64,000 bases of DNA from a virus. The stretch is from the IMG/VR virus record IMGVR_UViG_3300021961_000042, positions 41,564 to 105,563 of that record; one strand, 5' to 3'. A program made the translations under genes and the position numbers. Below, in pieces: positions 9,316-24,038 of this stretch. The notes under the pieces are model-generated. The model was not told the DNA's origin, ran no database searches, and worked only from the letters and a program-made list of their open reading frames with translations. Each line of letters starts with the position of its first letter. Position 1 is the first letter of the stretch.

Positions 9316-12305
9316 TGGCTAAAACTAAATTTTTATGTCCACCAATTGCGGCCACAGGTTCTGCAACTTTTTCCGACAATTTAGTCGGATTTCAAGTTGT
9401 GGACGGTGGAGGATTAACCCAAGGAAATTTTCAATTTACAACATCATCTTTTGAAAAAGTAAATAGAAGTTTTTCTCTTGGGGTTTTTTCACAACCATAC
9501 ACTCTTGAAACATTAAAAATTGATAATATAGAGCAAAGTAAATTATTTGTTGAAAAGAACTTTCAAGTAGTACCAAACTTTGATTTATCACAAGTAACTA
9601 GTTTTTCACTATATGGTTCTTTTAGTAAAAGAATTTCTTCATCTATTACAAAAATTATAAGTAATTTTCCCGCAGCATTACAAATTGATTTTAAAAATTT
9701 TTCACAGTTTACGGGAAATACCGCTTTTAATATACAATACGATAGTATTGAAAATGAAACTAGTTTTGATGTAAATATTTCATTAATAAAAAACCCATTT
9801 GATATTGATTACTCTATAAATGCAACATCGAATTTAGCGACAAGACCAATAAAGGTTAGTGAATATAGAAACCTTACAGTAAATTATACAAAATTTTCTT
9901 TATACGTTTCAAATTTAAATACACAATACAAAGTACTTGATTTTACCCCATCAACATTTATAAGTGCAGGAACTTTAAGTTTTATTGTTGAAGGTAATCC
10001 TTTTTCTTCACAAACAGCAACAACGGATACTTTAATTATAAAACCAAATGATGAAAAAACAGAAGAAATTTTTAATACAAATTTTGATTATGTTGAAAAA
10101 TATATTTTAAATAGACAAAGTTTTCCATTATATACTTCTGTTTATGAATATCCTGAATATAACGATAACGGAGAGTTAACTATGTATTCACAAAAATTAT
10201 CATGGGGTTTAGACGGACTTTGGAATTTAGATATATTCAGCAATAATTTTGAGACATACTTACAAGATTTAAGTAATATAACGGAAAATATAGATAGCTA
10301 CAGAACCAATTTAATAAGTAGATTTTTAACTTCAGGTTCAATAAAAGAATTTGATACTAACGATCAGAAAGTAGAAAAAGTATTACAGTTATACGGAAGA
10401 AGTTTCGATGAAACAAAAAAGTTTATTGATTCTTTAGCTTATATGACATCGGTTAATTATAAGGTGGGTAACGACATACCCTCACAGTTGTTAGTGAATT
10501 TGGCAAACACTTTAGGGTTTGATACTAAAACAACACCAATCACTAATGATGATTTAATGAATTCTATTTTTACAACATCAAAAGAACAAATTTATTCGGG
10601 ACAGGCTGTTCAAAAAACACCACAAGAACTAAATTATCAGTTTTATCGAAATTTAATTTTAAATGCTTCATATCTTTTTAGGTCTAAAGGTACTAGGAAA
10701 TCAATTGAATATATTTTAAGATTTATTGGTGCACCCGAACAATTAATAGAATTTAACGAGTACATTTATTTGGCCGATAGTAGAATCCCTATTGAAGATT
10801 TTGATTCCCAATATGCGACAATTTCTGGAGGTACTAAGTTTTTTACAAGACCTTCTTTAGATTCAAACAATACTTTTAAAATTAGAGGTGTAAAATACAC
10901 TGCGTTTACTACTGACGGGTTTATACAAAGTACCATAATAGATGAAACAGATTACCCAATAAATTTGATAACAGGATATCCTGAAGTTCCTGTTTTTACT
11001 GCTGATTATTATTTCCAAAAAGGATCAGGTTGGTTTGAAGTAACAACACAACATAGGTCTCAGGAAGTGGTTGATTTTGAGTTATCTAATTTTACGGTAA
11101 CACCATCTATTGTTAGGACTAAACTGGCTCCATTTACATATGGAAAAGAATATTTAGATAGGTTTGAAAATTTTCCATATATGGAACTTGGATATAATTT
11201 ATATAGGACTATTGATAACAAAAAATCTTGGAGAAAAGATGAGGTTGGTAGACGAAAATATACTAATGGCCTTGGATCAACACTTTATGAAACTAGTGAT
11301 GATAGGTTAGTTATTAATAGTAAAAACATGGAGATATATTTAAATATGGGACAAGGATTGACATACGATGTATGGAATACTTCAGTACAATATAATTACC
11401 CTATACCGAATAGTGGATTATCAGGTAATTATCCATCACCAGGTTTAAATGATTGGACAGTTATAAATCCAAAACCAAAAGAAAAAACATTTTTTGAGTT
11501 TGCTCAAACTTTTTATAATAACATGATTAATGTTAGAAATAGACAAACAATATCTGATGGTAAAACAGGAGGGTACCCAACACTACAGTCTATTTTTTGG
11601 AAATATCTTCAATCACAACAAACTGTAAATATACCAACAAATAATTACACTTATCAAAAAATGATAGATTATACACTTGGTTTAGGTGATTATTGGGTTA
11701 GACTTGTAGAGCAATTTGTACCCGCAACTGCGTTGTGGATGACGGGACAAAAAATGGATAACTCCGCATTTCATAGGCAAAAAGTCGTTTGGAGAAGACA
11801 AAGAGGGTGTTCATTTATTGAAAGCATATGTCCTCCTTGTGAATATAATGGAGAACCATTTACATATGATTGTATCGATCAAACAACAACATGTAACATA
11901 CCAAGCTTTAATCCAGCAACTGTTTTAAATAATAAAATTAATCAGTTAATAACAAGTAGTGGATATACAACCAACCAGTGTAACTTTAATACAATTTTAT
12001 CTGATTGGTATGTTGATTTAAGATTAAAGGATATTTTAACAAATACTGAACAAAGTTTAATATTAGAAAAATTTTATACAGGTTATGGTCAAAATGCTTC
12101 AAATTTAACTACAGGTTTACCTTTAACTTATTATGATATAATAAATGCGATAGACGATAAACTAGAGTTATTGTACCAAGATGGGTTGAATTACTATTTA
12201 TCGGGAGGAAATCTTATAATAAGTAATTCTAGTTGTTATGATGATTTCAATAATAAACAAATCAAATTATATATTGGTTTGGACGTACAAATTAATTGTG
12301 GATAA
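9315..12305 (+). CDS. Putative baseplate wedge-like protein
   Basis: 996 aa; YLFRSKGTRKSIEYILRFIG resembles the KGT motif of baseplate wedge/P2 gpI-type proteins. Confidence 0.55.
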   Translation: MAKTKFLCPPIAATGSATFSDNLVGFQVVDGGGLTQGNFQFTTSSFEKVNRSFSLGVFSQPYTLETLKIDNIEQSKLFVEKNFQVVPNFDLSQVTSFSLYGSFSKRISSSITKIISNFPAALQIDFKNFSQFTGNTAFNIQYDSIENETSFDVNISLIKNPFDIDYSINATSNLATRPIKVSEYRNLTVNYTKFSLYVSNLNTQYKVLDFTPSTFISAGTLSFIVEGNPFSSQTATTDTLIIKPNDEKTEEIFNTNFDYVEKYILNRQSFPLYTSVYEYPEYNDNGELTMYSQKLSWGLDGLWNLDIFSNNFETYLQDLSNITENIDSYRTNLISRFLTSGSIKEFDTNDQKVEKVLQLYGRSFDETKKFIDSLAYMTSVNYKVGNDIPSQLLVNLANTLGFDTKTTPITNDDLMNSIFTTSKEQIYSGQAVQKTPQELNYQFYRNLILNASYLFRSKGTRKSIEYILRFIGAPEQLIEFNEYIYLADSRIPIEDFDSQYATISGGTKFFTRPSLDSNNTFKIRGVKYTAFTTDGFIQSTIIDETDYPINLITGYPEVPVFTADYYFQKGSGWFEVTTQHRSQEVVDFELSNFTVTPSIVRTKLAPFTYGKEYLDRFENFPYMELGYNLYRTIDNKKSWRKDEVGRRKYTNGLGSTLYETSDDRLVINSKNMEIYLNMGQGLTYDVWNTSVQYNYPIPNSGLSGNYPSPGLNDWTVINPKPKEKTFFEFAQTFYNNMINVRNRQTISDGKTGGYPTLQSIFWKYLQSQQTVNIPTNNYTYQKMIDYTLGLGDYWVRLVEQFVPATALWMTGQKMDNSAFHRQKVVWRRQRGCSFIESICPPCEYNGEPFTYDCIDQTTTCNIPSFNPATVLNNKINQLITSSGYTTNQCNFNTILSDWYVDLRLKDILTNTEQSLILEKFYTGYGQNASNLTTGLPLTYYDIINAIDDKLELLYQDGLNYYLSGGNLIISNSSCYDDFNNKQIKLYIGLDVQINCG

Positions 12306-15073
12306 TGGCGGGAATATCGGGTAAAACGTTAGGTGGTTATTATAGTTATGTGGACTCTTGTGGTAATGCCCAACAAGGTTTTGCATTTGCAGATGTTTCC
12401 GTTTGTATTGATCAAACATATTCAGCAAGTACTGTTGGTTTAATTATTGATAGTGGTGCCACTTGTAATTTAAACTGTAATCAGGGACCAATAAGTTATA
12501 CGTATAGTGTAACCGGTACTTGTGATAATGTCAGTGGAGGGACTATTAATTTACAAGTTTTTGGTGGTATTGCGCCATACACGATAACAAATACACAACC
12601 TGGTAGTGTTCCTGTACAAACTAGTTCGAGTTTATTTTCATATACAGGTTTAAGTGCTAGTACATACGTTTTTAGAATAAATGATTCATCTGCACCACAA
12701 AATAATGAATTATACTTTAATATTAACATATCTGAGTGTTTTGAAACAACAATAGATAACGTTTCAGGAACAACTTGCGGAGATAATGACGGATCTTTTT
12801 TCATTAATGCCAACTCCAATTCATCTCCTTATAATATAATACTTTATAAAAACGGGATTTATTATTCGTTATATCAAACAAACACACTACCTTATTTAAT
12901 TAATGGGTTGAGTTCTGGGATTTATAATGCGGTTGTTTATGATTATGGACTGACCACAGCTAATACTGAAAATGTAGTGATTAGTGCTAGTACCCCAATC
13001 GAATACGGAATTTGGAAAGTTAACACTTCTACATGTGTAATTAATACAGGTAAGTTGGCGGTAACTGGATTAACAGGAAATGGTCCTTTTACTATTCAGT
13101 GGTCTGACGGGCAGACAGGACAATTGGCTACAGGGTTAACAGAAGGTACATATAGTGTAACGGTTACTGATTATTACGGGTGCCAATCAACACAAACAGA
13201 AACAATCGGAGCGGCACTCCCTTTAGGGATTGTTGGATCAACATCAGTTAATCCAACAGGTTGTTTTTCTTCTGATGGTAGTATAACCGTAAATATTTCT
13301 GGAGGTACGGGACCTTATTATTACTCTGCAAATACAAACCAAGTTGGTTATACTTTGTCTGATACCTTTACTTTATCTAATATGCCTTCGGGTAATTATA
13401 CTGTTTTTATTAGAGATGCTAACTTTTGTTCTATAACAACAAACGTAAGTATTGGAGTACCATTTGGGTTCACATTTGTAGGGAATACAATAACAAATAG
13501 TCAATGTAATCAAAATTCAGGGTCTTTAACCACAACAATACAAGGGGCAAATGGTTCTGTATTTTATAGTCTTTCAGGATTAACAAACGGAACATTTTAT
13601 TCACAAAATTTACAATCAAATACTGCGACTTTTAATAATTTATCTCCCGATAATTACTTATTAACAATATCAGGACAATCTAGTTCTTGTAATTACACAG
13701 ATACGGTTTTAATACAATCTGTTGATAAGTTTAATGTATCATTAAGTGTTACGGGGGACACATGTAATTCAGGTAATGGAAAAGTTGCTATAAATGTGGG
13801 TACTGGATACACTAATTGGCAAACAAACGGACAATTGGATTATATTTTAAGTAATGGTCAATCTATTATAGATACACCACTAACTTCATATACATTTACC
13901 AACCTAACTTCAGGAAATTATACATTACAAGTTGTAGATGAAGATAATTGTTCTGTAACAAGAAACTTCACAATAGTACCGGGGGGTAATTTAAATAGTT
14001 TTGTAACAACCACAAATTTAATTAATGGAAATGATGGGTCTGCGACTGTTTTTATATTTGAAGGAGAACCTACGTTTACATACACTTGGAGTGATAACGT
14101 GCCCGCAGGAACAACAGGTAGTACCGCTACCGGATTAAGTGGTGGATCATATTCTGTTTTAGTTACAGATAGTAGTGGGTGTACAAATCAATTATCTTTT
14201 GAAATTATAAGCAATTCTAATAACCCAGGACTACCACCAGGTATTAGTCCGAGTATTGTTTCAAATTATGTGGTTTATGAAATATGTTCCTCAAACTTTA
14301 TAACAACATCGAACACAAAAAGAGGTATAAGTGAAATGCTTAATGAAGGTTATTTGGATTTGAGTAGTGGTTATACAAATTGTATATTAAACACAGTTTC
14401 TTTAGATTGTATAATAACTATAAGTGGTGTTTCATATACACAAACACTAACCGCACCAAACGACGAATCATGGAAAACCGCAATTGAAACAATTTTATCA
14501 TCAATACCTGAAATAAGTGATTATGACGTTGATTTATTTAATAACACACTCCAAATAAAATCAACATGTACAGATGGTGTTGATAGTTTAGGAGAAACCG
14601 ATTTTAAATTAGAGTTAGCAATAACATACGACATTAGTTGTTATGAACCGGTAACACCAACCCCAACAGTTACCGTGACACCAACACCTACACCAACCCC
14701 TACACCTACACCAACTCCTACACCTACACCAACACCTACACCAACTCCGACGGCAACACCGGTACCTCCTCCATCATTTATGTGGTTCACAAATGGTCAG
14801 ACATATCCGAGTACTGTTAATACTTACTGTACTGCGACTAACTGTGCAACATTTACTTTTTATACAACAGGCGCCACAATATCTCAAAACGATATAATTT
14901 ATGCGGATGTTGCACTTACACAAAATATTGGAGGATTAGCGACAAATTTTGGACCATCTGGTGGTGGATTTGGAAGAATGTTCCTATCTAATGATTGTCC
15001 AATAGTTGGTACAAGAATAATTGTACAAATAGATGGGACAGGAAAAGTAATAAGTCAACCATACTCTTGTTAA
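12305..15073 (+). CDS. SprB-repeat virion/tail appendage protein with Pro-Thr linker
   Basis: Repeats like DGSITVNISGGTGPYYY...GTYSVTVTDxxGC; long (TP)n run near the C-terminus; start placed at the coupled ATG 12305. Confidence 0.65.
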   Translation: MAGISGKTLGGYYSYVDSCGNAQQGFAFADVSVCIDQTYSASTVGLIIDSGATCNLNCNQGPISYTYSVTGTCDNVSGGTINLQVFGGIAPYTITNTQPGSVPVQTSSSLFSYTGLSASTYVFRINDSSAPQNNELYFNINISECFETTIDNVSGTTCGDNDGSFFINANSNSSPYNIILYKNGIYYSLYQTNTLPYLINGLSSGIYNAVVYDYGLTTANTENVVISASTPIEYGIWKVNTSTCVINTGKLAVTGLTGNGPFTIQWSDGQTGQLATGLTEGTYSVTVTDYYGCQSTQTETIGAALPLGIVGSTSVNPTGCFSSDGSITVNISGGTGPYYYSANTNQVGYTLSDTFTLSNMPSGNYTVFIRDANFCSITTNVSIGVPFGFTFVGNTITNSQCNQNSGSLTTTIQGANGSVFYSLSGLTNGTFYSQNLQSNTATFNNLSPDNYLLTISGQSSSCNYTDTVLIQSVDKFNVSLSVTGDTCNSGNGKVAINVGTGYTNWQTNGQLDYILSNGQSIIDTPLTSYTFTNLTSGNYTLQVVDEDNCSVTRNFTIVPGGNLNSFVTTTNLINGNDGSATVFIFEGEPTFTYTWSDNVPAGTTGSTATGLSGGSYSVLVTDSSGCTNQLSFEIISNSNNPGLPPGISPSIVSNYVVYEICSSNFITTSNTKRGISEMLNEGYLDLSSGYTNCILNTVSLDCIITISGVSYTQTLTAPNDESWKTAIETILSSIPEISDYDVDLFNNTLQIKSTCTDGVDSLGETDFKLELAITYDISCYEPVTPTPTVTVTPTPTPTPTPTPTPTPTPTPTPTPTATPVPPPSFMWFTNGQTYPSTVNTYCTATNCATFTFYTTGATISQNDIIYADVALTQNIGGLATNFGPSGGGFGRMFLSNDCPIVGTRIIVQIDGTGKVISQPYSC
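14647..14772 (+). repeat. Pro-Thr coding hexamer repeat (ACNCCN)n
   Basis: Encodes PVTPTPTVTVTPTPTPT...PTATPVPPP with third-position variation. Confidence 0.9.
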
Positions 15074-15361
15074 ATGCCATATTCAATAGACATATTAAAT
15101 ATTTCAGGAGGTACACCACCTGTTTCATTATTTGCCTGTGATGAATTTGGTAATAATTGTACATTGTTAGGGACAACAACAGGCACTTATGTTTTACCCG
15201 CTCTTTTACAAACGGCAACTACTATTATGGTTAAAACGGTTGATAGTACGGGTTGTATTTACTTTAAGATATTAACTTGTGAAGAAGAAACATATTTTGT
15301 ATTAACAGAATTAGGAGACATTTTAGAAACTGAAAGTGGAGATTCATTAGTTTGGTCCTAA
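15074..15361 (+). CDS. Small Cys-containing tail adaptor-like protein (paralog 1)
   Basis: Shares GTxP...CD...C...KxVDxxGC pattern with 15377 and 21218; C-terminus VLTELGDILETESG. Confidence 0.55.
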   Translation: MPYSIDILNISGGTPPVSLFACDEFGNNCTLLGTTTGTYVLPALLQTATTIMVKTVDSTGCIYFKILTCEEETYFVLTELGDILETESGDSLVWS

Positions 15362-15376
15362 TCTATATTTATTATT

Positions 15377-15664
15377 ATGATAATTAATATTACTGGAGAA
15401 ACAGGAACTTTAGAACCTTTAGATATTTTTCTTTGTGACCCAACAAATACAGGATGTTTTTACATTTCAGGATTAACAAATATTCCAGCAACTGTTGTAA
15501 TAAACACTGAAAACTATTTCCCAAACGAAAATTTTTTATATTTAAGAATAGTCGATACTAATGGTTGCATTTACTCAACAATAATAGACTGTTTAGGTCA
15601 AAAGGCTTTCCAAGATGACATATACTTTAATTTTATGGACGGGTTTGGGTATATTTTTCAATAA
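15377..15664 (+). CDS. Small tail adaptor-like protein (paralog 2)
   Basis: Same N-terminal pattern; C-terminus FQDDIYFNFMDGFGYIFQ. Confidence 0.55.
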   Translation: MIINITGETGTLEPLDIFLCDPTNTGCFYISGLTNIPATVVINTENYFPNENFLYLRIVDTNGCIYSTIIDCLGQKAFQDDIYFNFMDGFGYIFQ

Positions 15665-15685
15665 TTAATATTTATAAAATAAAGT

Positions 15686-17527
15686 ATGCCAACATATCAA
15701 TTATTAACGGATAGAACATTAGCAGATGCGTCAGCAATAACGCCAACGACACTAATACATATAGTATATACAGGAGACCCATCTCAAAACCCTGCCGGAT
15801 CCTCATATAAAGCAGAATTAGGACAATTAGTTGGATTATTTAGTGGAGCATCTGACACTTTAGTGACGGGTGGAACATATAGTGCAGGAACAATTACTTT
15901 TACAAATAATAGTGGAGGAACATTTAATGTTTCAGGATTAACAGAACCATTTAGCGGAGGATCAGGAAACTGTATTGCAGATCTATATGTTACAAATATA
16001 CATGGATGTTCACCAATAACAATATACGATTCTATTAGATCTACAGGTTCTACGGTCTCAGGATTAACTTCATTTTCTTTTGGTTTTGAAACCTCCGCAA
16101 CTACTGATTATTCTTTTGCTACTGGAGCACAAACTTTGGCTTCGGGACCATACTCACACGCTGAAGGTATTTTGACAATATCTTCAGGTATATCTTCACA
16201 TGCAGAGGGAGTATTAACAGTTGCCGCTGAGTGGGGGTCCCATGCTGAGGGAGGATATTATAATGGTGCTAATTTTGCACCTGGAGGTAAGGCTCTTGCT
16301 TGGGGTTCACATGCTGAAGGAACATTAACTATCGCTTCGGGTGTTTCATCACATTCTGAAGGTGTTTATACTGTTGCCTTAGGATGGGGTTCACATGCAG
16401 AAGGAGGGTATGTAGATGGCGGTTTATATTCTGGTGGTACCGCTGTTGGTTTGGGTTCACATGCTGAAGGACAAGAAACAATATCATCGGGAACATCTTC
16501 ACATTCAGAAGGTTGGTTAACAAATTCTAGTGGTTCTTATTCACATGCGGAAGGGCAACTAACACTATCTTTGGGACAATCTTCACATGCCGAAGGACAA
16601 ACCACAATATCTTCAGGTGATTGGTCACATGCGGAAGGAAGTTCTACAATTGCATCAGGTAATTGGTCACATGCTGAAGGAAGTCAAACAGTCGCTAGTG
16701 GTGATTTTTCACATGCGGAAGGTTTTGGAACATTAGCAGATGGCAAGGGTTCACATGCGGAAGGAGGTTATTTCCTACACCCAACATACGTAAGTGGAGG
16801 TACCGCATTGGGTAGGGCTTCACATGCTGAAGGGGTAAAAACTACGGCTTATGGGATAGCATCCCATGCGGAAGGTGACGAGACATACTCTTTTGGTTTT
16901 GGGTCTCACGCCGAAGGTAATGGGACGTACACTTCAGGAACATACCAACACGCAACAGGAAAATGGAATTTGACTGCGGACACCAGTTCAGGTGCATTTA
17001 TCATTGGTAATGGAACAAGTAATTTAAATAGAAGTAATTTACTATTTGCGGCAAATTCAGGTGTTACAATTTATGGTAATTTTACTGCAAACACGGTATC
17101 TGCCACAACATATTATAATTTACCACCAAAAGAGGTTTTTTATAAATCTTCAGGACCTGGTTTTGCATATCTTGGTGAATTTTATGAACCATATTGTAGT
17201 GGTAGTTCCGATAAGGTTTATGTTAGCGGAACAATACCTTATGATTTTGATAGTTTAATTAGTAGTAAACTAATAACTATTTCAGACTTCACGGCAAGTG
17301 AATTGACTGATTTGAGAATAAATTATAACCAAACGGGAGGTATTTTTAGTGCTAACACGGCCTTTACTCAAACATCAATTAGTTACACCACCGAAGAATT
17401 TACTGAAGTTGATATACTACCAATTTTTTCAGGTTTATCCGCTAACGATAACTTTTCTGTTAGTATATTTCAAAATAACACTAACTTATTAGTCTTAGGT
17501 TTAAAAATGAAATATAATAGATTGTAA
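15686..17527 (+). CDS. Tail fibre/receptor-binding protein with SHAEG beta-roll repeats
   Basis: More than 15 14-aa repeats xxSHAEGxxTxAxG (YadA-head-like); N-terminus nearly identical to 21527. Confidence 0.75.
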   Translation: MPTYQLLTDRTLADASAITPTTLIHIVYTGDPSQNPAGSSYKAELGQLVGLFSGASDTLVTGGTYSAGTITFTNNSGGTFNVSGLTEPFSGGSGNCIADLYVTNIHGCSPITIYDSIRSTGSTVSGLTSFSFGFETSATTDYSFATGAQTLASGPYSHAEGILTISSGISSHAEGVLTVAAEWGSHAEGGYYNGANFAPGGKALAWGSHAEGTLTIASGVSSHSEGVYTVALGWGSHAEGGYVDGGLYSGGTAVGLGSHAEGQETISSGTSSHSEGWLTNSSGSYSHAEGQLTLSLGQSSHAEGQTTISSGDWSHAEGSSTIASGNWSHAEGSQTVASGDFSHAEGFGTLADGKGSHAEGGYFLHPTYVSGGTALGRASHAEGVKTTAYGIASHAEGDETYSFGFGSHAEGNGTYTSGTYQHATGKWNLTADTSSGAFIIGNGTSNLNRSNLLFAANSGVTIYGNFTANTVSATTYYNLPPKEVFYKSSGPGFAYLGEFYEPYCSGSSDKVYVSGTIPYDFDSLISSKLITISDFTASELTDLRINYNQTGGIFSANTAFTQTSISYTTEEFTEVDILPIFSGLSANDNFSVSIFQNNTNLLVLGLKMKYNRL

Positions 17528-17571
17528 TATTTTTAATTTACAAAAAATACTATAACATTTATTATAACTAT

Positions 17572-18768
17572 ATGAAAATATTTGTTCAAATCGCATCATA
17601 TAGAGATCCAGAGCTTCTACCAACAATTAGAGATTGTATTAATAAGGCAAAACACCCTGAAAATTTAACTTTTGGTATATGTTGGCAAAAAGACGAAACA
17701 GAATCTTTAGAAGAATTTTATACCGATGATAGATTTAGAATTTTAGAATATCATTGGTCAGAAAGTAAAGGTTTATGTTGGGCACGTTCAGAAATACAAA
17801 AACTTTGGAAAGGAGAAGAATATACCTTACAACTAGATTCACATCATAGATTTTTACAAAATTGGGATGAAGAATTAATCAATATGATGGGTATGGTTGA
17901 CTCTGAAAAACCAATTATCACATCATATGCTGGAATGTACCGACCAAGTAATAATGAGTTATTAAATGTTGAACCATATAAAATGGTTGCTACAAATTTC
18001 ACAGAAAGTGGAACAATTATGTTCAGACCACACTCAATACCAAATTGGGAAACATTAGAAAAACCAATACCTGCTAGATTTGTTAGTGGACATTTTTTCT
18101 TCACATTAGGAAAACATTGTGAAGAATACAAATACGACCCAAACATTTATTTTGCCGGTGATGAAATTAGTTTATCAATTCGTTCCTATACATTAGGGTA
18201 TGATTTGTTTCACCCTCATAAAACAGTTGTGTGGCATGAATATACAAGAGAAGGTAGAACAAAACATTGGACAGATTTTAATCAGGAAAATAAAACAAAA
18301 GGGGTTGTTGAAAAACAATGGTGGGAAATGGATAATGAATCCAAAAGAAGACTAAGACATATGTTACAAGAAGAAGATAATAACATAGACTTAGGAATAT
18401 ATGGATTAGGTAGTGTTAGAACACATAAAGAATATGAAGACTACGCAGGAATAAATTTTAAGTATAGGAAACTTCACCAAGAAACACTCAAAGGAACCAA
18501 TCCACCAATTAATGATTCATCAGAATGGTATTTTAGTGAAGAAAAAGAATATAACTTGGAATTAGAAATACCAATTACCGAAGACTTTAAATTTATTTAT
18601 GTTGGTATTGAAGATGATAAAAATAATGTTATCTACCGTAATGATCTAACCACTTACCAAGAAAAAATAACAGCATGTTTCAAGTCATTTTCTCAACCAT
18701 ATAAATGGGTATATTGGGTTTATGATAATACAGACAATTGGATAAACAGACAAGATTTTTTATTATGA
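17572..18768 (+). CDS. GT60-like (GlcNAc family) polypeptide HexNAc transferase
   Basis: IFVQIASYRDPEL, SKGLCWAR, LQLDSHHRFxxxWD (DxH), FVSGHFFF, YFAGDEISLSIRSYTxGYDLFHP, WHEY. Confidence 0.8.
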   Translation: MKIFVQIASYRDPELLPTIRDCINKAKHPENLTFGICWQKDETESLEEFYTDDRFRILEYHWSESKGLCWARSEIQKLWKGEEYTLQLDSHHRFLQNWDEELINMMGMVDSEKPIITSYAGMYRPSNNELLNVEPYKMVATNFTESGTIMFRPHSIPNWETLEKPIPARFVSGHFFFTLGKHCEEYKYDPNIYFAGDEISLSIRSYTLGYDLFHPHKTVVWHEYTREGRTKHWTDFNQENKTKGVVEKQWWEMDNESKRRLRHMLQEEDNNIDLGIYGLGSVRTHKEYEDYAGINFKYRKLHQETLKGTNPPINDSSEWYFSEEKEYNLELEIPITEDFKFIYVGIEDDKNNVIYRNDLTTYQEKITACFKSFSQPYKWVYWVYDNTDNWINRQDFLL

Positions 18769-19562
18769 ATATAGGTGTATTTTACCAATCGGGACATAAA
18801 TTAGTGGCATGCTACAAGGCGTTAGAACAATTAAGAAAAATCTACCCTAATGTACCTGTCGCATTATTTGAAGATGGATCTGATATTTTAGAACCCGTTG
18901 CAAAAAAGTTTAACTGTGATTACACTTGGTTAGAACAACAAGGAGTGAATAATCCAACATCGGGGAGAGTTTTTGTAAAAGAAAACGGACAACTTGATTG
19001 GTTAAAAAGAATATATGATGCCTGTACTACAACATTAAAAGATGTTGATTGGGTTTTACATTATGAGGATGATGTTTGGTGTCGATTTGAAATAACAAAA
19101 CCACCTAAGTTTGATATTTCAGGGGCAAATGGTCCATTATATACTAAAGAACTTTATCAATATTTAAAAAATAAATTTAACGTATTGGACGAATCTAGAC
19201 ATCATTGGAGTCATTTAGGTTCATTAGAAAGTTATGGTGCTTGTGGAGGAACTATATTTAATAGAGAAAAATTTATTGAAATTTATAATAGATTAGATGA
19301 AGTACCGTGGAGTGAAATTTATAAATTAGATTCAAGACCTATTGAATGGTGCGACGCAACACTATCATTTTTGTTTCAGTTTTTTGGTTATACTAGTGGT
19401 GTTTGGGAGGATTGGGCACAATACGATTCAAAAAATATAGGTAATTGGTGGGATAAAACAGGGTGGTCAGTACCTATGGAAGAACAACCAAATGTTGCTT
19501 TTTTACACGCATATAAACATTTTTATAATTATAAACCTGAAGAAGTAATTTTAGATTTATAA
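18765..19562 (+). CDS. Putative GT-A glycosyltransferase
   Basis: DWVLHYEDDV (DxD-like) and ACGGTIFNREKF motifs; ATGA-coupled to the GT60 gene. Confidence 0.6.
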   Translation: MNIGVFYQSGHKLVACYKALEQLRKIYPNVPVALFEDGSDILEPVAKKFNCDYTWLEQQGVNNPTSGRVFVKENGQLDWLKRIYDACTTTLKDVDWVLHYEDDVWCRFEITKPPKFDISGANGPLYTKELYQYLKNKFNVLDESRHHWSHLGSLESYGACGGTIFNREKFIEIYNRLDEVPWSEIYKLDSRPIEWCDATLSFLFQFFGYTSGVWEDWAQYDSKNIGNWWDKTGWSVPMEEQPNVAFLHAYKHFYNYKPEEVILDL

Positions 19563-19599
19563 AACAAAAGTTAGATTATTTATATAATATAAAAATTAG

Positions 19600-21216
19600 A
19601 TGGCAGATTTAAGATTTCAAGGTTGTTGTTATGACGCTTATCAATATGTGACGGACGATACCGCTTGGGTAGCGACTGGTGGTACTGCAACAACAGGTTT
19701 AACATATCATTTTTCGGGAGACCCTATTGTACCTGATGGGTGTTATACTATTGTATCGGCTTTTACTTCAGGGTTTACTGCAACAACATTTACAAATTTA
19801 GATGGAACTTATACTTTACAAACCGATTGTTCAGATACGTTATGTGCTACTGGTGATTGTTGTAGTAATGAAGTTTGTATTTCGATAAACTTTAGTGGAT
19901 ACACAGCAATAACCGGAAATTATAATGTTTCTGGATATAATAATGGATATCCATTTTGGACAGGAGGAACAAATCCGGGTTACCTTTTTTATGATAACAC
20001 TAAATGGTGTTTATCTACAGGACTTACAGGTAATTGTTTTTTTTATGGATCACAACCAACAACACAAACTTGTCCTGATTTAGACTCAACAATTTTAAAC
20101 AATGGTGTTTGTCCTTCAGGATCTACACCATCTGACCCATGTTCATTATTAGATTTTGATATTTTATTGGAATGTGAAATACCAACACCTACACCAACAC
20201 CTACACCCACACCCACTCCTACACCCACTCCTACACCCACACCAACTCCAAACCTATGCTCAGGTTTTACGGTTTCCATTTCAATATCAGGATCACCAGC
20301 ACCTTTACCCCCACCCACACCTACACCTACACCCACACCAACCATGTATCCAATTTTATCATCGGTTACTTACGTAGTGGATAGTGGGTTATTTGATTGT
20401 GCAAATGTTAAGCAATTAGTAGACTGTGATACAGGTTTAAGTTATTATGTAACAGGACCTATAACATTTTCAGGATCAGGAGTTACAACAGGGACAACAT
20501 TTTTGGCGGTTATTAATGGAACTTATAAATGCGTGACATACCAAAATGATATATTTGGTAGTGTTTCAAATTATTTGAATTCAGTTCAAGCCATTTATAT
20601 ATCGGGATGTACGTCTTGTATTGCACCTACACCCACACCAACCGCAACACCTACACCTACACCTACTCCGACACCTACTCCGACACCTACACCTACTCCG
20701 ACATTTCCGGTAAATGCTCAATTTATATTTACATCTTGTACAAATAACAGTATGATCATTCAATACACATATCCAGGATCTACTGTTGATGTTGGAGATG
20801 TTTTAAAATCTTCTTCAGGTAGTTGTTATACCTATATTGGTAACTTTGTTGGTTATACGCCACCTGCTGGGTTTATATGGTCACAACAAGAGGTATTTAC
20901 AGGTACTTCTTTTACGGTGTTTAAATCATGTGAGGCATGTTTGTTACCAACACCAACACCAACACCGACAGTCACTTCTTGGAATGTAAAGGGCGAATTT
21001 AGTTTGAATTGTCCTGTTTGTGAATTAACAAATGGAGGTACAACACAAACAATATACGCTGACGGATTATTGTTAGAAGATGGTGTTTATGTTTATGAAG
21101 ATGTTGGATTAACAATTCCGGTATTTGTAACCTACATAAAATACGGAACCAAAATATTTGAGGTGAGTTCAACAGGGTTATTAACTGAATATTGTAATGT
21201 AAACGGAAATTGTTAA
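19600..21216 (+). CDS. Cys-rich virion appendage protein with four Pro-Thr linkers
   Basis: Small Cys-rich domains separated by (PT)n runs; TATTTATA upstream. Confidence 0.6.
20181..20973 (+). repeat. Four Pro-Thr coding tracts (~20181-20250, 20305-20343, 20625-20703, 20946-20973)
   Basis: ACACCN/ACTCCN hexamer runs. Confidence 0.85.
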
Positions 21217-21217
21217 T

Positions 21218-21502
21218 ATGGCACAAATTGTAACATTAAATTCAACAACAGGTACATTCCCATTAGATGTTTGGGTATGTGATGGGTGTGTTTCCACATC
21301 TACTTGTTTATATATTGGAACAACATCTTCATTACCTTATAATTTTACATTACCATCTTTTTTTGAAGAAAGTCCATCGTACTCAATAAAAGTTATTGAT
21401 GCAAATGAATGTGAATATTGTTTAACCGACAGTTCATTTAAAGAGTTTATGGATGACGATATTTTTATATTTATGGACGATACACCATATGAATTTCAAT
21501 AA
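21218..21502 (+). CDS. Small tail adaptor-like protein (paralog 3)
   Basis: Same N-terminal pattern; C-terminus FMDDDIFIFMDDTPYEFQ matches 15377. Confidence 0.55.
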   Translation: MAQIVTLNSTTGTFPLDVWVCDGCVSTSTCLYIGTTSSLPYNFTLPSFFEESPSYSIKVIDANECEYCLTDSSFKEFMDDDIFIFMDDTPYEFQ

Positions 21503-21526: not shown

Positions 21527-22387
21527 ATGGCAAAATTAACTGATAAAACATTAGCACAAGCAACAGCAATAACACCAACGACGTTGATACATATTGTGTA
21601 TACAGGAGATCCTTCGCAGAATGCTGCAGGATCTTCGTATAAAGCGGAATTAGGTCAATTAACTACGATATTTGGTAGTGGTGGTAATTATTGGACATCG
21701 GGATCAAGTGGTACAGACTCTGTAGTCATAATAAATTCAAGTGGGGCTGACGCCACCGCAAATAGAGCATTGGCTTGGGGTAATCAAACACTGGCTTCAG
21801 GTTCTGATTCCACCGCTAGCGGATTTCAGACACAAGCGACTGGGTCAACATCGACCGCTCAAGGATATGAAACAATTGCTGGGGGCAGTAGATCACATGC
21901 GGAAGGGTTCCAAACTAGAGCGATAGGAACTAATTCACATGCCGAAGGAAATGCCTGTGAGGCGAATGGAAACACGTCACACGCAGAAGGTTGGGTATGT
22001 TTGGCGAACGGAGATTTTTCACACGCAGAAGGTTGGACAACTACTGCGGATGGAGATAGGTCCCATTCCCAAGGATATCTAACCGTTGCTAGTGGTAATA
22101 AATCACACGCGGGTGGAGATTCCTCAATTGCATCAGGGGAGACATCATTCATTCATTCAACTAATTCATTAGTCACTGGTACAAGAAGTGTATTATTGGG
22201 AGGACAGAATTTAACAGGAACAACAGACGATACCGTTTATGTACCTAATTTTATTATAAAAACATCTTATACACCAACTAGTACCGCTGATGTTGCTGGT
22301 GAACCCGGTTCTATAACATGGGACGATGATAATTTTTATTATAAAACTAATAATGGTTGGTTTATAGTTACAGGATCTACTTTCTAA
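21527..22387 (+). CDS. Second, shorter SHAEG-repeat tail fibre
   Basis: AITPTTLIHIVYTGDPSQNxAGSSYKAELGQL shared with 15686; SHAEG repeats; C-terminal GSITWDDDNFYYKT. Confidence 0.75.
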   Translation: MAKLTDKTLAQATAITPTTLIHIVYTGDPSQNAAGSSYKAELGQLTTIFGSGGNYWTSGSSGTDSVVIINSSGADATANRALAWGNQTLASGSDSTASGFQTQATGSTSTAQGYETIAGGSRSHAEGFQTRAIGTNSHAEGNACEANGNTSHAEGWVCLANGDFSHAEGWTTTADGDRSHSQGYLTVASGNKSHAGGDSSIASGETSFIHSTNSLVTGTRSVLLGGQNLTGTTDDTVYVPNFIIKTSYTPTSTADVAGEPGSITWDDDNFYYKTNNGWFIVTGSTF

Positions 22388-22388
22388 A

Positions 22389-24038
22389 ATGGTTAATTAT
22401 AGTGCAAATACATGTGATATTATTACTTTATACCCTTTAGGTGTTGAGTGTATAGTTACAGACGCATATAGTCCTTTCACTACCGATGGTGCGATTTCAT
22501 TATTTATCACAGGTGGCACTTCACCGTATTATGTTAATTGGTCAAGTGGTTCACAATTACAATCCATATCAAATCTAGCACCAGGAGAATATACGGCAAC
22601 AGTTACAGATTTTTTTGGTGATTTTACCGCAACTACAACATGTGAAGTAGGTTTTGAAACATTTTATATAGAATCTTTTTTTAATTGTAATGATCCTGAA
22701 AGTTATTTATATTACACCGCCGATTTAGAAAATCAAATCACAACAGGAAAAACATATATATTAGCATCTCAAACAGGATGTTGGGTTAGTGACGGATTGG
22801 TTTTGTACACAGGACAAACGTATTATCAATTTACCGCAACAACGACTTCAGGTCCTTTTGATAATTGTACAGAATGTTTACCAGTCACACCTGAATTTGA
22901 AAATACAGAAACACTTTGTTTAAATTCTAAAATTTATACAGCAACACCAACATTACCACCAGTTGTAACAGTTACAAATAATCAATTTCAATTCTACTCT
23001 GCATCAACAATAAATGGGTATCCATCTTGGACAAGTAGTACTAAAACCATTTATTATAATGCAAATTCATTACAGTGGATGGTTTCAGGTTGGACTTTAG
23101 CAGGTCAACCTGTTTTACAATCGAACATATCACCACCTATTGGTATTTGGACGTTTAACGGTGTTAGCGGAACAATAAATGTAACACAAGGATTATGTGA
23201 AGATAATATTGTTTTAAATACTACCCAATCACAAGCAACCTGTAATAATTCAAATAACGGATTAATACAAGTGACATCAGTTGTTGGAGGAATAGCACCA
23301 TATACGTACTCATTAACAAATAACCCATTAGACTACCAAAGCTCACCATTTTTTTTAAATTTAGATACAGGTACATATACAGTTTATGTTAAAGACATTA
23401 TTGGAAATATTGGAAGTAAGTTAGCAACAATCACCCCACAAACATCGGTAGCAAATTATCAAATAACATTAAATTTTGTACCCTCAACACCAACAATAAC
23501 CGACACTCAGTCATATAAAGAAACGACCTTTGATTGGCAAGTTAGCATTCAACCACCATTACCACCTAATAAAACTATTACGTTTGATATTATTCACACA
23601 ACAAATATTTCAGGAGGTACTTATACAACAAGTTCACCAATATTATTACACTCCTCAACAACAGGACAAACAGGTGGAGGTCAATATTTAACAAGTGGAA
23701 TTACAAATAGTTTCAATAACTCAACAACAACTTTTTGTGCTGGGTCAACTAACTTTACTAATTTTAATGTAACTGCAACAACAAGAACATATTCTGCAAA
23801 AATAACAGGACCTGGTACTGTTGGAGGTCAAATATTTAAAAAAATAACAACTAATAATTCTACAGTATGTCCAACAAAGGGAGTTATTAGAGATAGTTTT
23901 TCGGTGATTAATGCAACTATAGTTAATCAAAATGTTTGTGAAACTTTAAACATACCTGCTAACCCAATAACAAATACATTAGATAAAGAAGGACTATTAA
24001 CTGTTGCACCAACCGGTGGTGGAGGTATCGGAGGATAA
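22389..24038 (+). CDS. SprB-repeat-containing structural protein
   Basis: DGAISLFITGGTSPYYVNWS...LAPGEYTATVTD; GGIAPYTYSL...GTYTVYVKD. Confidence 0.6.
   Translation: MVNYSANTCDIITLYPLGVECIVTDAYSPFTTDGAISLFITGGTSPYYVNWSSGSQLQSISNLAPGEYTATVTDFFGDFTATTTCEVGFETFYIESFFNCNDPESYLYYTADLENQITTGKTYILASQTGCWVSDGLVLYTGQTYYQFTATTTSGPFDNCTECLPVTPEFENTETLCLNSKIYTATPTLPPVVTVTNNQFQFYSASTINGYPSWTSSTKTIYYNANSLQWMVSGWTLAGQPVLQSNISPPIGIWTFNGVSGTINVTQGLCEDNIVLNTTQSQATCNNSNNGLIQVTSVVGGIAPYTYSLTNNPLDYQSSPFFLNLDTGTYTVYVKDIIGNIGSKLATITPQTSVANYQITLNFVPSTPTITDTQSYKETTFDWQVSIQPPLPPNKTITFDIIHTTNISGGTYTTSSPILLHSSTTGQTGGGQYLTSGITNSFNNSTTTFCAGSTNFTNFNVTATTRTYSAKITGPGTVGGQIFKKITTNNSTVCPTKGVIRDSFSVINATIVNQNVCETLNIPANPITNTLDKEGLLTVAPTGGGGIGG

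Follow-up and report, generated by a model that had tools for sequence, protein, structure and literature searches.

The characterised enzymes of glycosyltransferase (GT) family GT60 act on polypeptide acceptors, Thr/Pro-rich mucin-like repeats, and, unlike GT27, have no ricin-type lectin domain (PMC8724618). In phages, mycobacteriophages Che8, Rita and others encode GTs that act in the cytoplasm of the bacterium and O-glycosylate structural proteins of the phage itself (Freeman et al. 2023, Cell Host Microbe 31:1216, as related in PMC11256854 and PMC12582341), and virions of the Xanthomonas jumbo phage XacN1 contain at least two PAS/Schiff-stained glycoproteins, which the authors attributed to the two glycosyltransferases of this phage, naming no GT family, acceptor proteins or Pro-Thr (PT) tracts (PMC5852040).

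Here we analyse a 64-kb window (the whole stretch of DNA under study, 64,000 nt) of the 105,563-bp contig of a large uncultured phage. The initial annotation had placed in it a coupled two-gene GT unit (17572–19562), within the tail gene block and between proteins carrying five (Pro-Thr)n tracts, one of them reading PTPTVTVTPT. An ORF check of the window located all of the annotated ORFs, and the ATGA overlap of the two GT genes and their fibre and baseplate surroundings agree with the described arrangement. We consider it probable that the locus is a late-expressed, cytoplasmic protein O-glycosylation cassette with which the phage decorates its own fibre proteins before assembly.

The tail-fibre module and its Pro-Thr linkers

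The GT pair and the PT proteins sit in the middle of a tail-fibre gene module, with a baseplate wedge gene 19 kb upstream and a tail sheath gene beyond it. All features discussed below are on the plus strand, and the GT genes are co-oriented and closely packed inside the late structural operon. A profile search detected YadA-head-like and SprB repeats in the proteins neighbouring the GT pair. The first of the two PT proteins, the fibre-like PTa (12305–15073, ATG at 12305, ~922 aa), is a candidate acceptor with SprB/Y_Y_Y-type repeats and 25 Cys. It is followed at its 3' end by two paralogous proteins of ~95 aa (15074–15361 and 15377–15664), candidate adaptors or chaperones, for which Pfam and PHROG profile searches returned no family match and whose homologues hold the same position in every syntenic locus. 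Next come a 613-aa fibre protein with YadA-head-like 'SHAEG' repeats (15686–17527; PF05658, 1.9e-8; phrog_25468, 8e-52), the two GT genes and, directly 3' of these, the 538-aa fibre-like PTb (19600–21216), the prime candidate acceptor. The remainder of the module comprises a 94-aa protein paralogous to the ~95-aa pair (21218–21502), a YadA-like fibre of 286 aa (21527–22387) and a 549-aa SprB-repeat protein (22389–24038). All fibre-module proteins contain 11–17% Thr. Fibre modules attract accessory genes, and this alone could bring GTs and low-complexity fibre proteins together.

Allowing V/A interruptions, we counted exactly the five linkers of the initial annotation, one in PTa and four in PTb, with ~49 Thr in total. 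The long PT linker of PTa (14672–14770, residues ~793–825, 15 Thr; TVTPTPT...PTATPVPP) precedes the C-terminal domain and includes the PTPTVTVTPT stretch. PTb consists of small Cys-rich globular modules strung on its four linkers (20182–20250, 20308–20343, 20623–20703 and 20947–20979; residues 195–217, 237–248, 342–368 and 450–460), which together hold 34 Thr; the protein as a whole is 17.5% Thr and 10% Pro, with 28 Cys. Across the 105,563-bp contig, (PT)n runs with n of at least 3 occur only in PTa and PTb, neither of which lies farther than 4 kb from the GT pair. The DNA of the tracts is an imperfect repeat (78–91% matching) with synonymous codon variation, so that it is the peptide that is conserved, and the tracts are not a recent slippage array.

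The arrangement is stable in the phage's relatives: PTb lies directly 3' of GT60, or of GT60 plus the second GT, in 43 out of 43 syntenic loci, and PTa is kept in all of them, while the lengths of the PTb tracts vary among close relatives. Six lineage contigs continue past the baseplate wedge marker for long enough to include GT60, and all six also have PT tracts; those that stop short have neither, except for a single fragment of 16 kb in which a PT tract occurs on its own. Since we never found GT60 missing within the syntenic lineage, the lineage offers no natural GT60-minus control.

The GT60 enzyme and the coupled second glycosyltransferase

The first GT gene (17572–18768) encodes a 398-aa, predicted soluble protein that matches PF11397, 'Glycosyltransferase (GlcNAc)', with E=1.1e-67 and 229.4 bits (cut-off 21), two stretches of the protein covering profile positions 2–44 and 92–350 of 352; it also matches phrog_24687 (4.7e-101). 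In an alignment of 22 homologues (44–92% identity) D89-S90-H91 (QLDSHHRF, nt 17836–17844) and H222 (WHEYTR) are invariant. The AF2 model comprises a GT-A catalytic domain and a six-stranded C-terminal beta-sandwich of ~80 aa (residues ~320–398) that is outside the PF11397 model; the N-terminal Rossmann-like part has a pLDDT of 83–93 and the middle is weak (below 50 at residues 190–228). No PDB chain matched the protein at the sequence level. The best 45 Foldseek matches of this moderate-quality model in the PDB are all GT27 ppGalNAc-transferases (GalNAc-T1, T2, T4, T7, T10, T12, PGANT9 and TgGalNAc-T3); their E values lie between 7e-8 and 5e-5, and the TM is only ~0.4. The score against PF00535, 19.4 bits, is under the cut-off of 23.3, and no ricin or lectin Pfam match was detected. 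The HMM search suggested by the initial annotation thus bears out its assignment of this gene to GT60, and the folds its kinship to GT27. We propose the protein as a candidate initiating polypeptide HexNAc-transferase. Neither GT has a predicted TM segment or signal peptide, and PTa and PTb have no predicted TM segment.

The second GT (18765–19562, 265 aa), a candidate extender, has its true start at ATG 18765, and this start codon and the stop of GT60 (TGA, 18766–18768) run together as ATGA; as judged by this overlap, the gene is translationally coupled to GT60. Searches against Pfam, PHROG and the PDB sequences gave no match for it. Its residues E101-D102-D103 (nt 19065–19073), CGG160–162, H248 and K251 are invariant, with EDD and H248 invariant or nearly so across 39 sequences, and the AF2 model has a pLDDT of 93.5 and a pTM of 0.92. 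Foldseek returned 349 PDB matches at E≤1e-3, the matches listed being glycosyltransferases, with GT6/GfsA first (E~1e-7). A VIA-wide fold comparison returned mostly glycosyl- and nucleotidyl-transferases (Z 9.5–14.4), including CHSY3 (Z=14.4), Manic Fringe (12.6), C1GalT1 (12.5) and B3GalT5 (12.3). As modelled, then, the protein is a GT-A glycosyltransferase with a high-confidence fold, nearest to the GT31 type by VIA and to GT6 by Foldseek, in keeping with the earlier description of an EDD-type GT. With the GT31 beta-1,3 transferases (C1GalT1, Fringe, B3GalT5/6, CHSY3) it has in common the GT-A fold and an acidic DxD-type motif, here EDD, after beta-4 (Z=12–14 over ~190 residues), and C1GalT1 and Fringe extend the first O-linked protein sugar, matching the extender role proposed here. 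Sequence identity to GT31 is only 10–13%, however, and given this, the lack of a sequence match and the GT6 ranking by Foldseek, the similarity is that of a generic GT-A fold, from which stereochemistry is not inferable. The protein belongs to an unnamed viral GT-A family. It is facultative, being missing in ~14 of the 43 syntenic loci, and its homologues are always found within a GT60 operon wherever enough DNA is present.

Association of GT60 with PT tracts and the alternative acceptors

Co-occurrence of GT60 and PT tracts across related phages had been put forward as a check. Outside this phage's syntenic lineage we collected 30 non-syntenic GT60 clusters, dereplicated at 85%: a PT-tract ORF directly adjoins GT60 in 10 of them, as compared to 3.5 expected from a within-locus shuffle (p=0.00025). 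These adjacent ORFs are homologous neither to PTa or PTb nor to one another outside the tracts, leaving the tract as their sole common feature. In the reverse direction, of 43 viral contigs picked only on the (CCNACN)6 DNA pattern 8 carry PF11397, among them 7 of the 11 that are at least 60 kb long, versus 0 of 44 picked on a collagen-like pattern (Fisher p=0.0025); four of the eight positives carry a GT60 ~40% identical to that of the phage, and so represent other clades. The GT60/PT pairing exceeds both chance and shared ancestry. The check came out positive as regards co-occurrence and adjacency across unrelated phage lineages, but the pairing is not universal: 14 of the 30 clusters have no PT ORF within 8–10 kb, and in the larger contigs of such clusters PT tracts are at least 46 kb away, or there are none in the fragment. 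PT tracts are thus not the sole or obligatory context of GT60.

The PT-less clusters are also what one would expect if the enzymes glycosylated virion proteins at other sites, such as Thr/Ser-rich surface regions on the fibres with YadA-like or SprB repeats, with the PT tracts serving as unglycosylated spacers. The high Thr content of every fibre-module protein would provide such sites, and the mycobacteriophage glycans are reportedly attached to capsid and tail-tube subunits at their C-termini rather than to PT linkers. While this explanation accommodates those observations, it leaves aside that the GT60-adjoining PT ORFs share the tract alone, that immediate adjacency is above the within-locus shuffle and that picking contigs by nothing but the PT pattern enriches for GT60, and we regard it as unlikely.

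GT60 is the first and constant gene of the cassettes, and the genes behind it vary: two GT4-like genes, GT25-like, GT11 and Glf in L062, GT2 and GT11 in L044, a GT8-like gene in L036 and a GT32-like gene in L517. This is the pattern expected of one initiator with interchangeable extenders. Some of these GT60-headed clusters of other lineages (with GT11, GT25-like, GT4-like, GT2 and UDP-galactopyranose mutase) also look like O-antigen/LOS clusters, as would be the case if the GTs were directed at the host, remodelling the envelope glycans of the infected cell (LPS, capsule or others), for instance as a block to superinfection, in a fibre module that merely tolerates insertions; GT clusters of jumbo cyanophages were so interpreted by Iyer et al. 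2021 (PMC7824862). Against host targets speak the polypeptide acceptors of the characterised GT60 enzymes (PMC8724618) and the polypeptide GalNAc-transferases as nearest solved folds. Within the 64-kb window, moreover, neither a membrane segment nor a gene for a flippase, polymerase or lipid-carrier transferase occurs in or between the GT genes, which are instead co-oriented and tightly packed in a late structural operon, and host targets leave the statistical link to PT proteins unexplained. We judge this possibility quite unlikely.

Hydroxyproline as the acceptor is very unlikely. Gnt1 is a soluble cytoplasmic enzyme with hydroxyproline, not Thr, as its acceptor, and PF11397 is a family constructed around this Skp1 Hyp-GlcNAc-transferase. 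On this reading, a prolyl hydroxylase would first act on Pro within the PT tracts, and the resulting Hyp would receive GlcNAc from GT60; however, no PF13640-type 2OG oxygenase is present in the 105-kb contig (~35% of the genome), and none lies between the fibre genes. Finally, while phage DNA-modifying glucosyltransferases are well known (PMC5852040), base glycosylation of the phage DNA against restriction is extremely improbable for enzymes that are encoded in a fibre module rather than with replication or nucleotide-metabolism genes, whose family and nearest folds are those of polypeptide transferases while the known DNA-glucosylating enzymes belong to other families, and whose PT association would be left unexplained.

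The proposed cassette and comparison with known systems

For fibre glycosylation on the PT linkers, we suggest the following course. The soluble GT60 would use a UDP-HexNAc donor, most likely UDP-GlcNAc, a metabolite of every bacterium, with a divalent metal held at D89-x-H91 and H222, and would attach the first sugar to the hydroxyl groups of Thr along the PT linkers of PTa and PTb. The second GT-A enzyme, with its EDD motif, would add a second sugar. Densely glycosylated, the PT linkers may form extended, stiff, protease-resistant spacers between the small globular fibre modules; the initial annotation also envisaged that the stalks might be camouflaged. Family, motifs, gene coupling, the lack of signal peptides and TM segments, the position in the fibre module and the recurrent GT60–PT adjacency are what the analysis shows; the acceptor residue, the sugars, their order and the benefit are inferred.

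The PT-ORF/GT60 junction recurs twice in other particle types, once in a Sphingomonas contractile-injection locus that encodes a CIS tape-measure protein and once in an element of the crAss-muzzle-like kind; the cassette is present in further bacteria, and many bacteria have close GT60 relatives. Tentatively, and with a little less than an even chance in our estimate, there may exist a widespread, modular, cytoplasmic 'mucin-type' cassette of prokaryotic particle-building systems, consisting of a PT-linker protein, a GT60 initiator and interchangeable extenders (one of them the unnamed viral GT-A family), and spanning several unrelated large aquatic myovirus lineages, crAss-like elements, bacterial secreted proteins and extracellular contractile injection systems. 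Phage fibres densely coated with O-glycans would then be common in nature, and prokaryotes and viruses would harbour a large, unstudied sister group of the eukaryotic GT60/GT27 mucin initiators.

With the protist GT60 enzymes (Dictyostelium Gnt2/pp-alphaGlcNAcT, Trypanosoma cruzi OGNT and Gnt1, which acts on Skp1-Hyp), the phage enzyme has in common the PF11397 family and the DxH metal motif, and like Gnt1 it is predicted to be soluble. It differs from them in being phage-encoded, in having no Golgi-type membrane anchor and in its extra ~80-aa C-terminal beta-sandwich, and it is known from sequence and model. The GT27 ppGalNAc-transferases, the animal mucin-type initiators whose structures are the nearest solved ones among the best 45, likewise have a DxH motif and dense Thr/Pro acceptors, but the phage GT60 lacks both their ricin lectin domain and sequence-level membership in their family.

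In XacN1, ORF334, one of the two glycosyltransferases to which the stained virion proteins were attributed, is a full-length GT60 homologue (37.7% identity, 98% query coverage, E=1e-89) located near baseplate genes and the giant ORF325 (3,313 aa), which holds one or more in-frame PT tracts. XacN1 differs in that its GT60 neighbours are a carbamoyltransferase and a GT9, with no homologue of the second GT adjacent. The mycobacteriophage type combines phage-encoded GTs with glycans on virion proteins; in the present phage the GT genes lie inside the structural module, and the one related wet-lab observation is the PAS staining of XacN1 virion proteins. The mycobacteriophage type differs in belonging to actinobacteriophages and in having capsid and tail-tube acceptors rather than PT-linker fibres, and the citing papers we draw on describe no GT60 in it. 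The novelty claimed in the initial annotation was overstated to the extent that virion O-glycosylation by phage GTs is already published, by way of the mycobacteriophages and the PAS-positive proteins of XacN1; what stands as new is the pairing of GT60 with PT linkers, undescribed so far.

The fibre module and its two glycosyltransferases

The cassette lies on a 105,563-bp IMG/VR contig, of which the window makes up the final 64 kb. This contig is ~35% complete as judged by CheckV, and the phage genome is therefore probably of the 300-kb class, with a GC content of ~30%. The phage is a myovirus: genes for the tail sheath and the baseplate wedge are located upstream, the latter 19 kb before the GT60/ORF2 region. 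Megablast of 10 kb of the region against GenBank phages produced no match; the lineage is without a close cultured relative. Our ORF map agrees with the gene positions proposed in the initial annotation. The fibre module, in which all genes are co-oriented, is bounded by a protein of 996 aa and, at the other end, a SprB-repeat protein of 549 aa (22389-24038). PTa (12305-15073, + strand) is followed by two ~95-aa proteins (15074-15361 and 15377-15664), a 613-aa fibre identified by a profile match to YadA head repeats, GT60 (17572-18768, +), ORF2 (18765-19562, +), PTb (19600-21216, +), which carries PT linkers, a 94-aa paralogue of the ~95-aa proteins (21218-21502), a 286-aa YadA-like fibre and, at the far border, the SprB-repeat protein. 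PHROG annotation of the large neighbouring ORFs was mostly empty. A 100-aa (GV)n ORF at 20043-20345 (-) was rejected as a shadow of the PT tracts and not a gene. The three ~95-aa paralogues each sit after a large fibre-like gene, a position kept in all syntenic relatives; they matched no known family and are candidate chaperones or adaptors of the fibres. SprB repeats are present in two fibre proteins (12296-15073 and 22389-24038), and low-GC contigs with GT60 have been binned with freshwater Bacteroidota (for example L468, a contig of a Sediminibacterium MAG), which together hint at a Bacteroidota host.

In the whole 105,563-bp contig, (PT)n runs with n≥3 are found in PTa and PTb only. When single V/A interruptions are permitted, there are exactly five linkers, as initially annotated – one in PTa and four in PTb, with ~49 Thr. 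The DNA that encodes them repeats imperfectly and varies at synonymous positions, hence selection acts on the PT peptide; the genome composition disfavours CCN and ACN codons.

The assignment of the first enzyme to GT60, suggested earlier on inspection, was borne out by HMM search (PF11397, 1.1e-67, 229 bits against a cut-off of 21). The protein also matches a PHROG annotated as glycosyltransferase (4.7e-101), and its score with the generic GT2 model PF00535 is below the cut-off. Aligning 22 homologues with identities as low as 44% showed the motifs QLDSHHRF (D89-x-H91) and WHEYTR (H222) to be invariant, and we take these residues to be the DxH...H metal site that characterizes GT27/GT60 enzymes. 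Sequence and profile searches of the PDB returned no meaningful chain match. The AF2 model has a pLDDT of 74.6, with both ends good and residues 190-228 poor; in a Foldseek search with this model, the best 45 matches listed are all polypeptide GalNAc-transferases. Beyond the Pfam model, residues ~320-398 form a confident six-stranded β-sandwich at the position that is held by the ricin lectin domain in GT27; protist GT60 enzymes also have no ricin lectin domain (review, PMC8724618). As no hydrophobic segment was detected, the phage GT60 is expected to be soluble, in contrast to the Golgi enzymes. Some homologues (L030:9716-11200, on another GT60 contig, and the protein P0208) carry an extra N-terminal Cys-rich domain of ~90 aa.

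The true start codon of ORF2, the ATG at 18765, forms an ATGA overlap with the stop codon of GT60. ORF2 has no match in Pfam, PHROG or the PDB (single-sequence and profile searches), none of its 137 homologues has a functional name, and its neighbours in the ESM Atlas are viral clusters. Conserved residues are E101-D102-D103, C160-G-G, H248 and K251, and the AF2 model is excellent (pLDDT 93.5). Foldseek ranks GT6 and GfsA first (E~1e-7); in a search that does not depend on Foldseek, the highest Z-scores go to GT31-type enzymes (CHSY3, 14.4; Manic Fringe, 12.6; C1GalT1, 12.5; B3GalT5, 12.3), with the best 50 matches mostly glycosyltransferases and some nucleotidyltransferases. On the basis of the conserved motifs, the model and the structure matches, we assign ORF2 to the GT-A glycosyltransferases by fold, in keeping with the EDD-type glycosyltransferase of the initial annotation; the family is unnamed and apparently viral, and the activity is predicted.

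Association of GT60 with Pro-Thr proteins

We collected 64 GT60 loci from IMG/VR, 43 of which belong to one syntenic lineage with this phage. In these 43 loci PTb always comes after GT60, with ORF2 between the two in about two thirds and absent from the rest. Using the baseplate wedge as lineage marker (at least 600 IMG/VR stretches matched, 595 of them confirmed relatives), we searched for relatives devoid of GT60 and found none: GT60 and PT tracts were both present in all contigs that extended sufficiently far. Co-occurrence within the lineage is uninformative because this control is absent, and the lineage counts as a single observation; we therefore turned to non-syntenic lineages. The remaining IMG/VR loci were combined with GT60 loci from PT-pattern and ORF2 searches, excluding bacterial loci, and dereplicated at 85% identity, yielding 30 clusters with GT60 24-78% identical to that of this phage. 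A PT ORF lies within 8-10 kb of GT60 in 16 of the 30 clusters, and is its immediate neighbour in 10, as compared to 3.5 expected upon within-locus shuffling of PT ORFs (p=0.00025). The PT proteins of these clusters are 286-1,703 aa long and have as many as 15 tracts; since outside the tracts they are non-homologous to PTa, PTb and each other, it is the PT tract that they share. The association has exceptions: 14 of the 30 clusters have no PT ORF nearby, and in the larger contigs scanned for such clusters the tracts were either far off or not found. Loosening the definition to Ser/Thr/Pro-rich tracts recovered only one of 15 loci lacking or nearly lacking PT tracts.

In the reverse direction, we sampled viral contigs by the pattern (CCNACN)6 alone. 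PF11397 was detected in eight of the 43 searchable contigs (7/11 among those of at least 60 kb) and in none of 44 control contigs picked by a collagen-like pattern of equal information (Fisher p=0.0025). Four of the eight positives lie outside the lineage of this phage, as their GT60 is only ~40% identical to that of this phage. The co-occurrence of GT60 and PT tracts across phages, as anticipated earlier, thus holds both by immediate adjacency and by reverse sampling.

Cassette composition in phages and bacteria

GT60 is the constant gene, usually the first after the PT protein, and the downstream genes vary by lineage. At L062:11236-16879, the genes downstream of a 43%-identity GT60 are a pair of GT4-like genes, one GT25-like gene and those for a GT11 fucosyltransferase (5e-26) and a UDP-galactopyranose mutase (1e-70), a gene content which implies that the predicted glycan of the L062 phage contains galactofuranose and fucose. 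GT60 is followed by GT2 and GT11 in locus L044 and by a GT8-like gene in L036. Divergent ORF2 homologues (38-44% identity) lie in operons headed by GT60, several of which sit behind PT proteins with 10-14 tracts; the single exception is L447, where GT60 is near the ORF2 homologue on the opposite strand. A constant initiator with exchangeable extenders is how a protein O-glycosylation pathway would be expected to look; taken alone, such an arrangement would fit a polysaccharide pathway as well.

With a threshold of E≤1e-5, PF11397/GT60 comprises over 7,000 protein clusters. A search of bacterial species genomes gave 282 stretches with a full-length homologue (36-56% identity), from taxa including Verrucomicrobiota, Acidobacteriota, Sphingomonas and Saprospiraceae; among the 80 bacterial loci examined, at least eight have a PT ORF ending at the GT60 start. 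In a Sphingomonas sp. RT2P30 contig (L524:4292-15536), this is a 1,233-aa PT protein with an Rv2525c-like glycoside-hydrolase domain; a gene for a contractile-injection-system tape-measure protein (PF19268, 8.5e-99) follows at a distance of 2 kb, which extends the occurrence of the cassette to an eCIS-like locus. In a 3-Mb contig of a Saprospiraceae MAG (L517:307-12475), a 1,844-aa PT protein (six tracts; likeness to the crAss muzzle at E=2.3e-6, with 26.5 bits falling slightly short of the cut-off of 27) is followed by a 672-aa PT protein (12 tracts that add up to 174 aa of PT), GT60 and a 747-aa GT32-like protein (Gly_transf_sug); the source is probably either a crAss-like prophage or a phage contig that was binned. 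Finally, in a Vicinamibacterales MAG (L480:6436-7980), the PT protein directly upstream of GT60 has an fn3 domain and an RRRF twin-arginine-like N-terminus, which hints that this protein is glycosylated in the cytoplasm and, in folded form, then exported by Tat.

Putative glycosylation of fibre linkers and known systems

The putative O-glycosylation of the fibre PT linkers passed every available computational test. Thr residues of the linkers would receive their first HexNAc from GT60, and ORF2 would extend it. Modification would take place in the cytoplasm before assembly, since the genes are part of an operon of late structural genes, and export signals and transmembrane segments are absent from both the enzymes (GT60, ORF2) and the proposed acceptors (PTa, PTb). 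The products may serve as rigid, protease-resistant spacers, as do the glycosylated linkers of mucins and cellulases. Hydroxyproline in the tracts, serving as the acceptor in place of Thr, is less likely: no PF13640 prolyl hydroxylase/2OG oxygenase is encoded in the 105,563-bp contig, which covers ~35% of the genome. Extra GT2 genes are likewise absent from this contig. Modification of DNA or of host glycans by the two enzymes, which sit among fibre genes, ranks low.

If GT60 does coat the fibre Pro-Thr linkers, a very abundant freshwater phage group would bear mucin-like glycan stalks, with consequences for virion persistence amid proteases, for adsorption and host range, and for recognition by grazers or immune systems. 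Virion proteomics would be affected, as glycosylated PT peptides escape standard searches. The enzyme would be a soluble polypeptide HexNAc-transferase compatible with the bacterial cytoplasm and using a simple (PT)n acceptor, of possible use in glyco-engineering, and the eukaryotic mucin-initiating GT60/GT27 enzymes would gain a much wider evolutionary frame.

Among GenBank phages, GT60 homologues are present in four jumbo phages only; cultured GT60 phages include XacN1, Xoo-sp13 and the Stenotrophomonas phages CM1 and RAS14. In one of these, Xanthomonas phage XacN1, the homologue (ORF334) lies near the genes for the baseplate wedge and near ORF325 (3,313 aa), which has an in-frame PT tract; further tracts are found in ORF384, ORF232, ORF236 and ORF237. 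To our knowledge, experimental proof of phage virion glycosylation is confined to actinobacteriophages, and such glycosylation has been considered rare elsewhere. Purified XacN1 virions contain at least two Schiff-stained glycoprotein bands, and the authors suggest that these are made by the phage glycosyltransferases, with neither the family nor the acceptors identified there (PMC5852040). The initial annotation had claimed that such a system is without precedent. This stands for the link itself, as we found no paper in the full-text literature in which phage structural proteins are connected with GT60 or PF11397 (in one preprint, GT60 is simply an entry in a list of viral CAZymes), but is too strong for the phenomenon: virion O-glycosylation by phage enzymes is established in mycobacteriophages, according to the passages of PMC11256854 and PMC12582341 that cite Freeman et al. 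2023. We class the putative GT60/PT system with phage virion glycosylation, and its proposed cytoplasmic operation would be shared with both Gnt1 and the mycobacteriophage systems.
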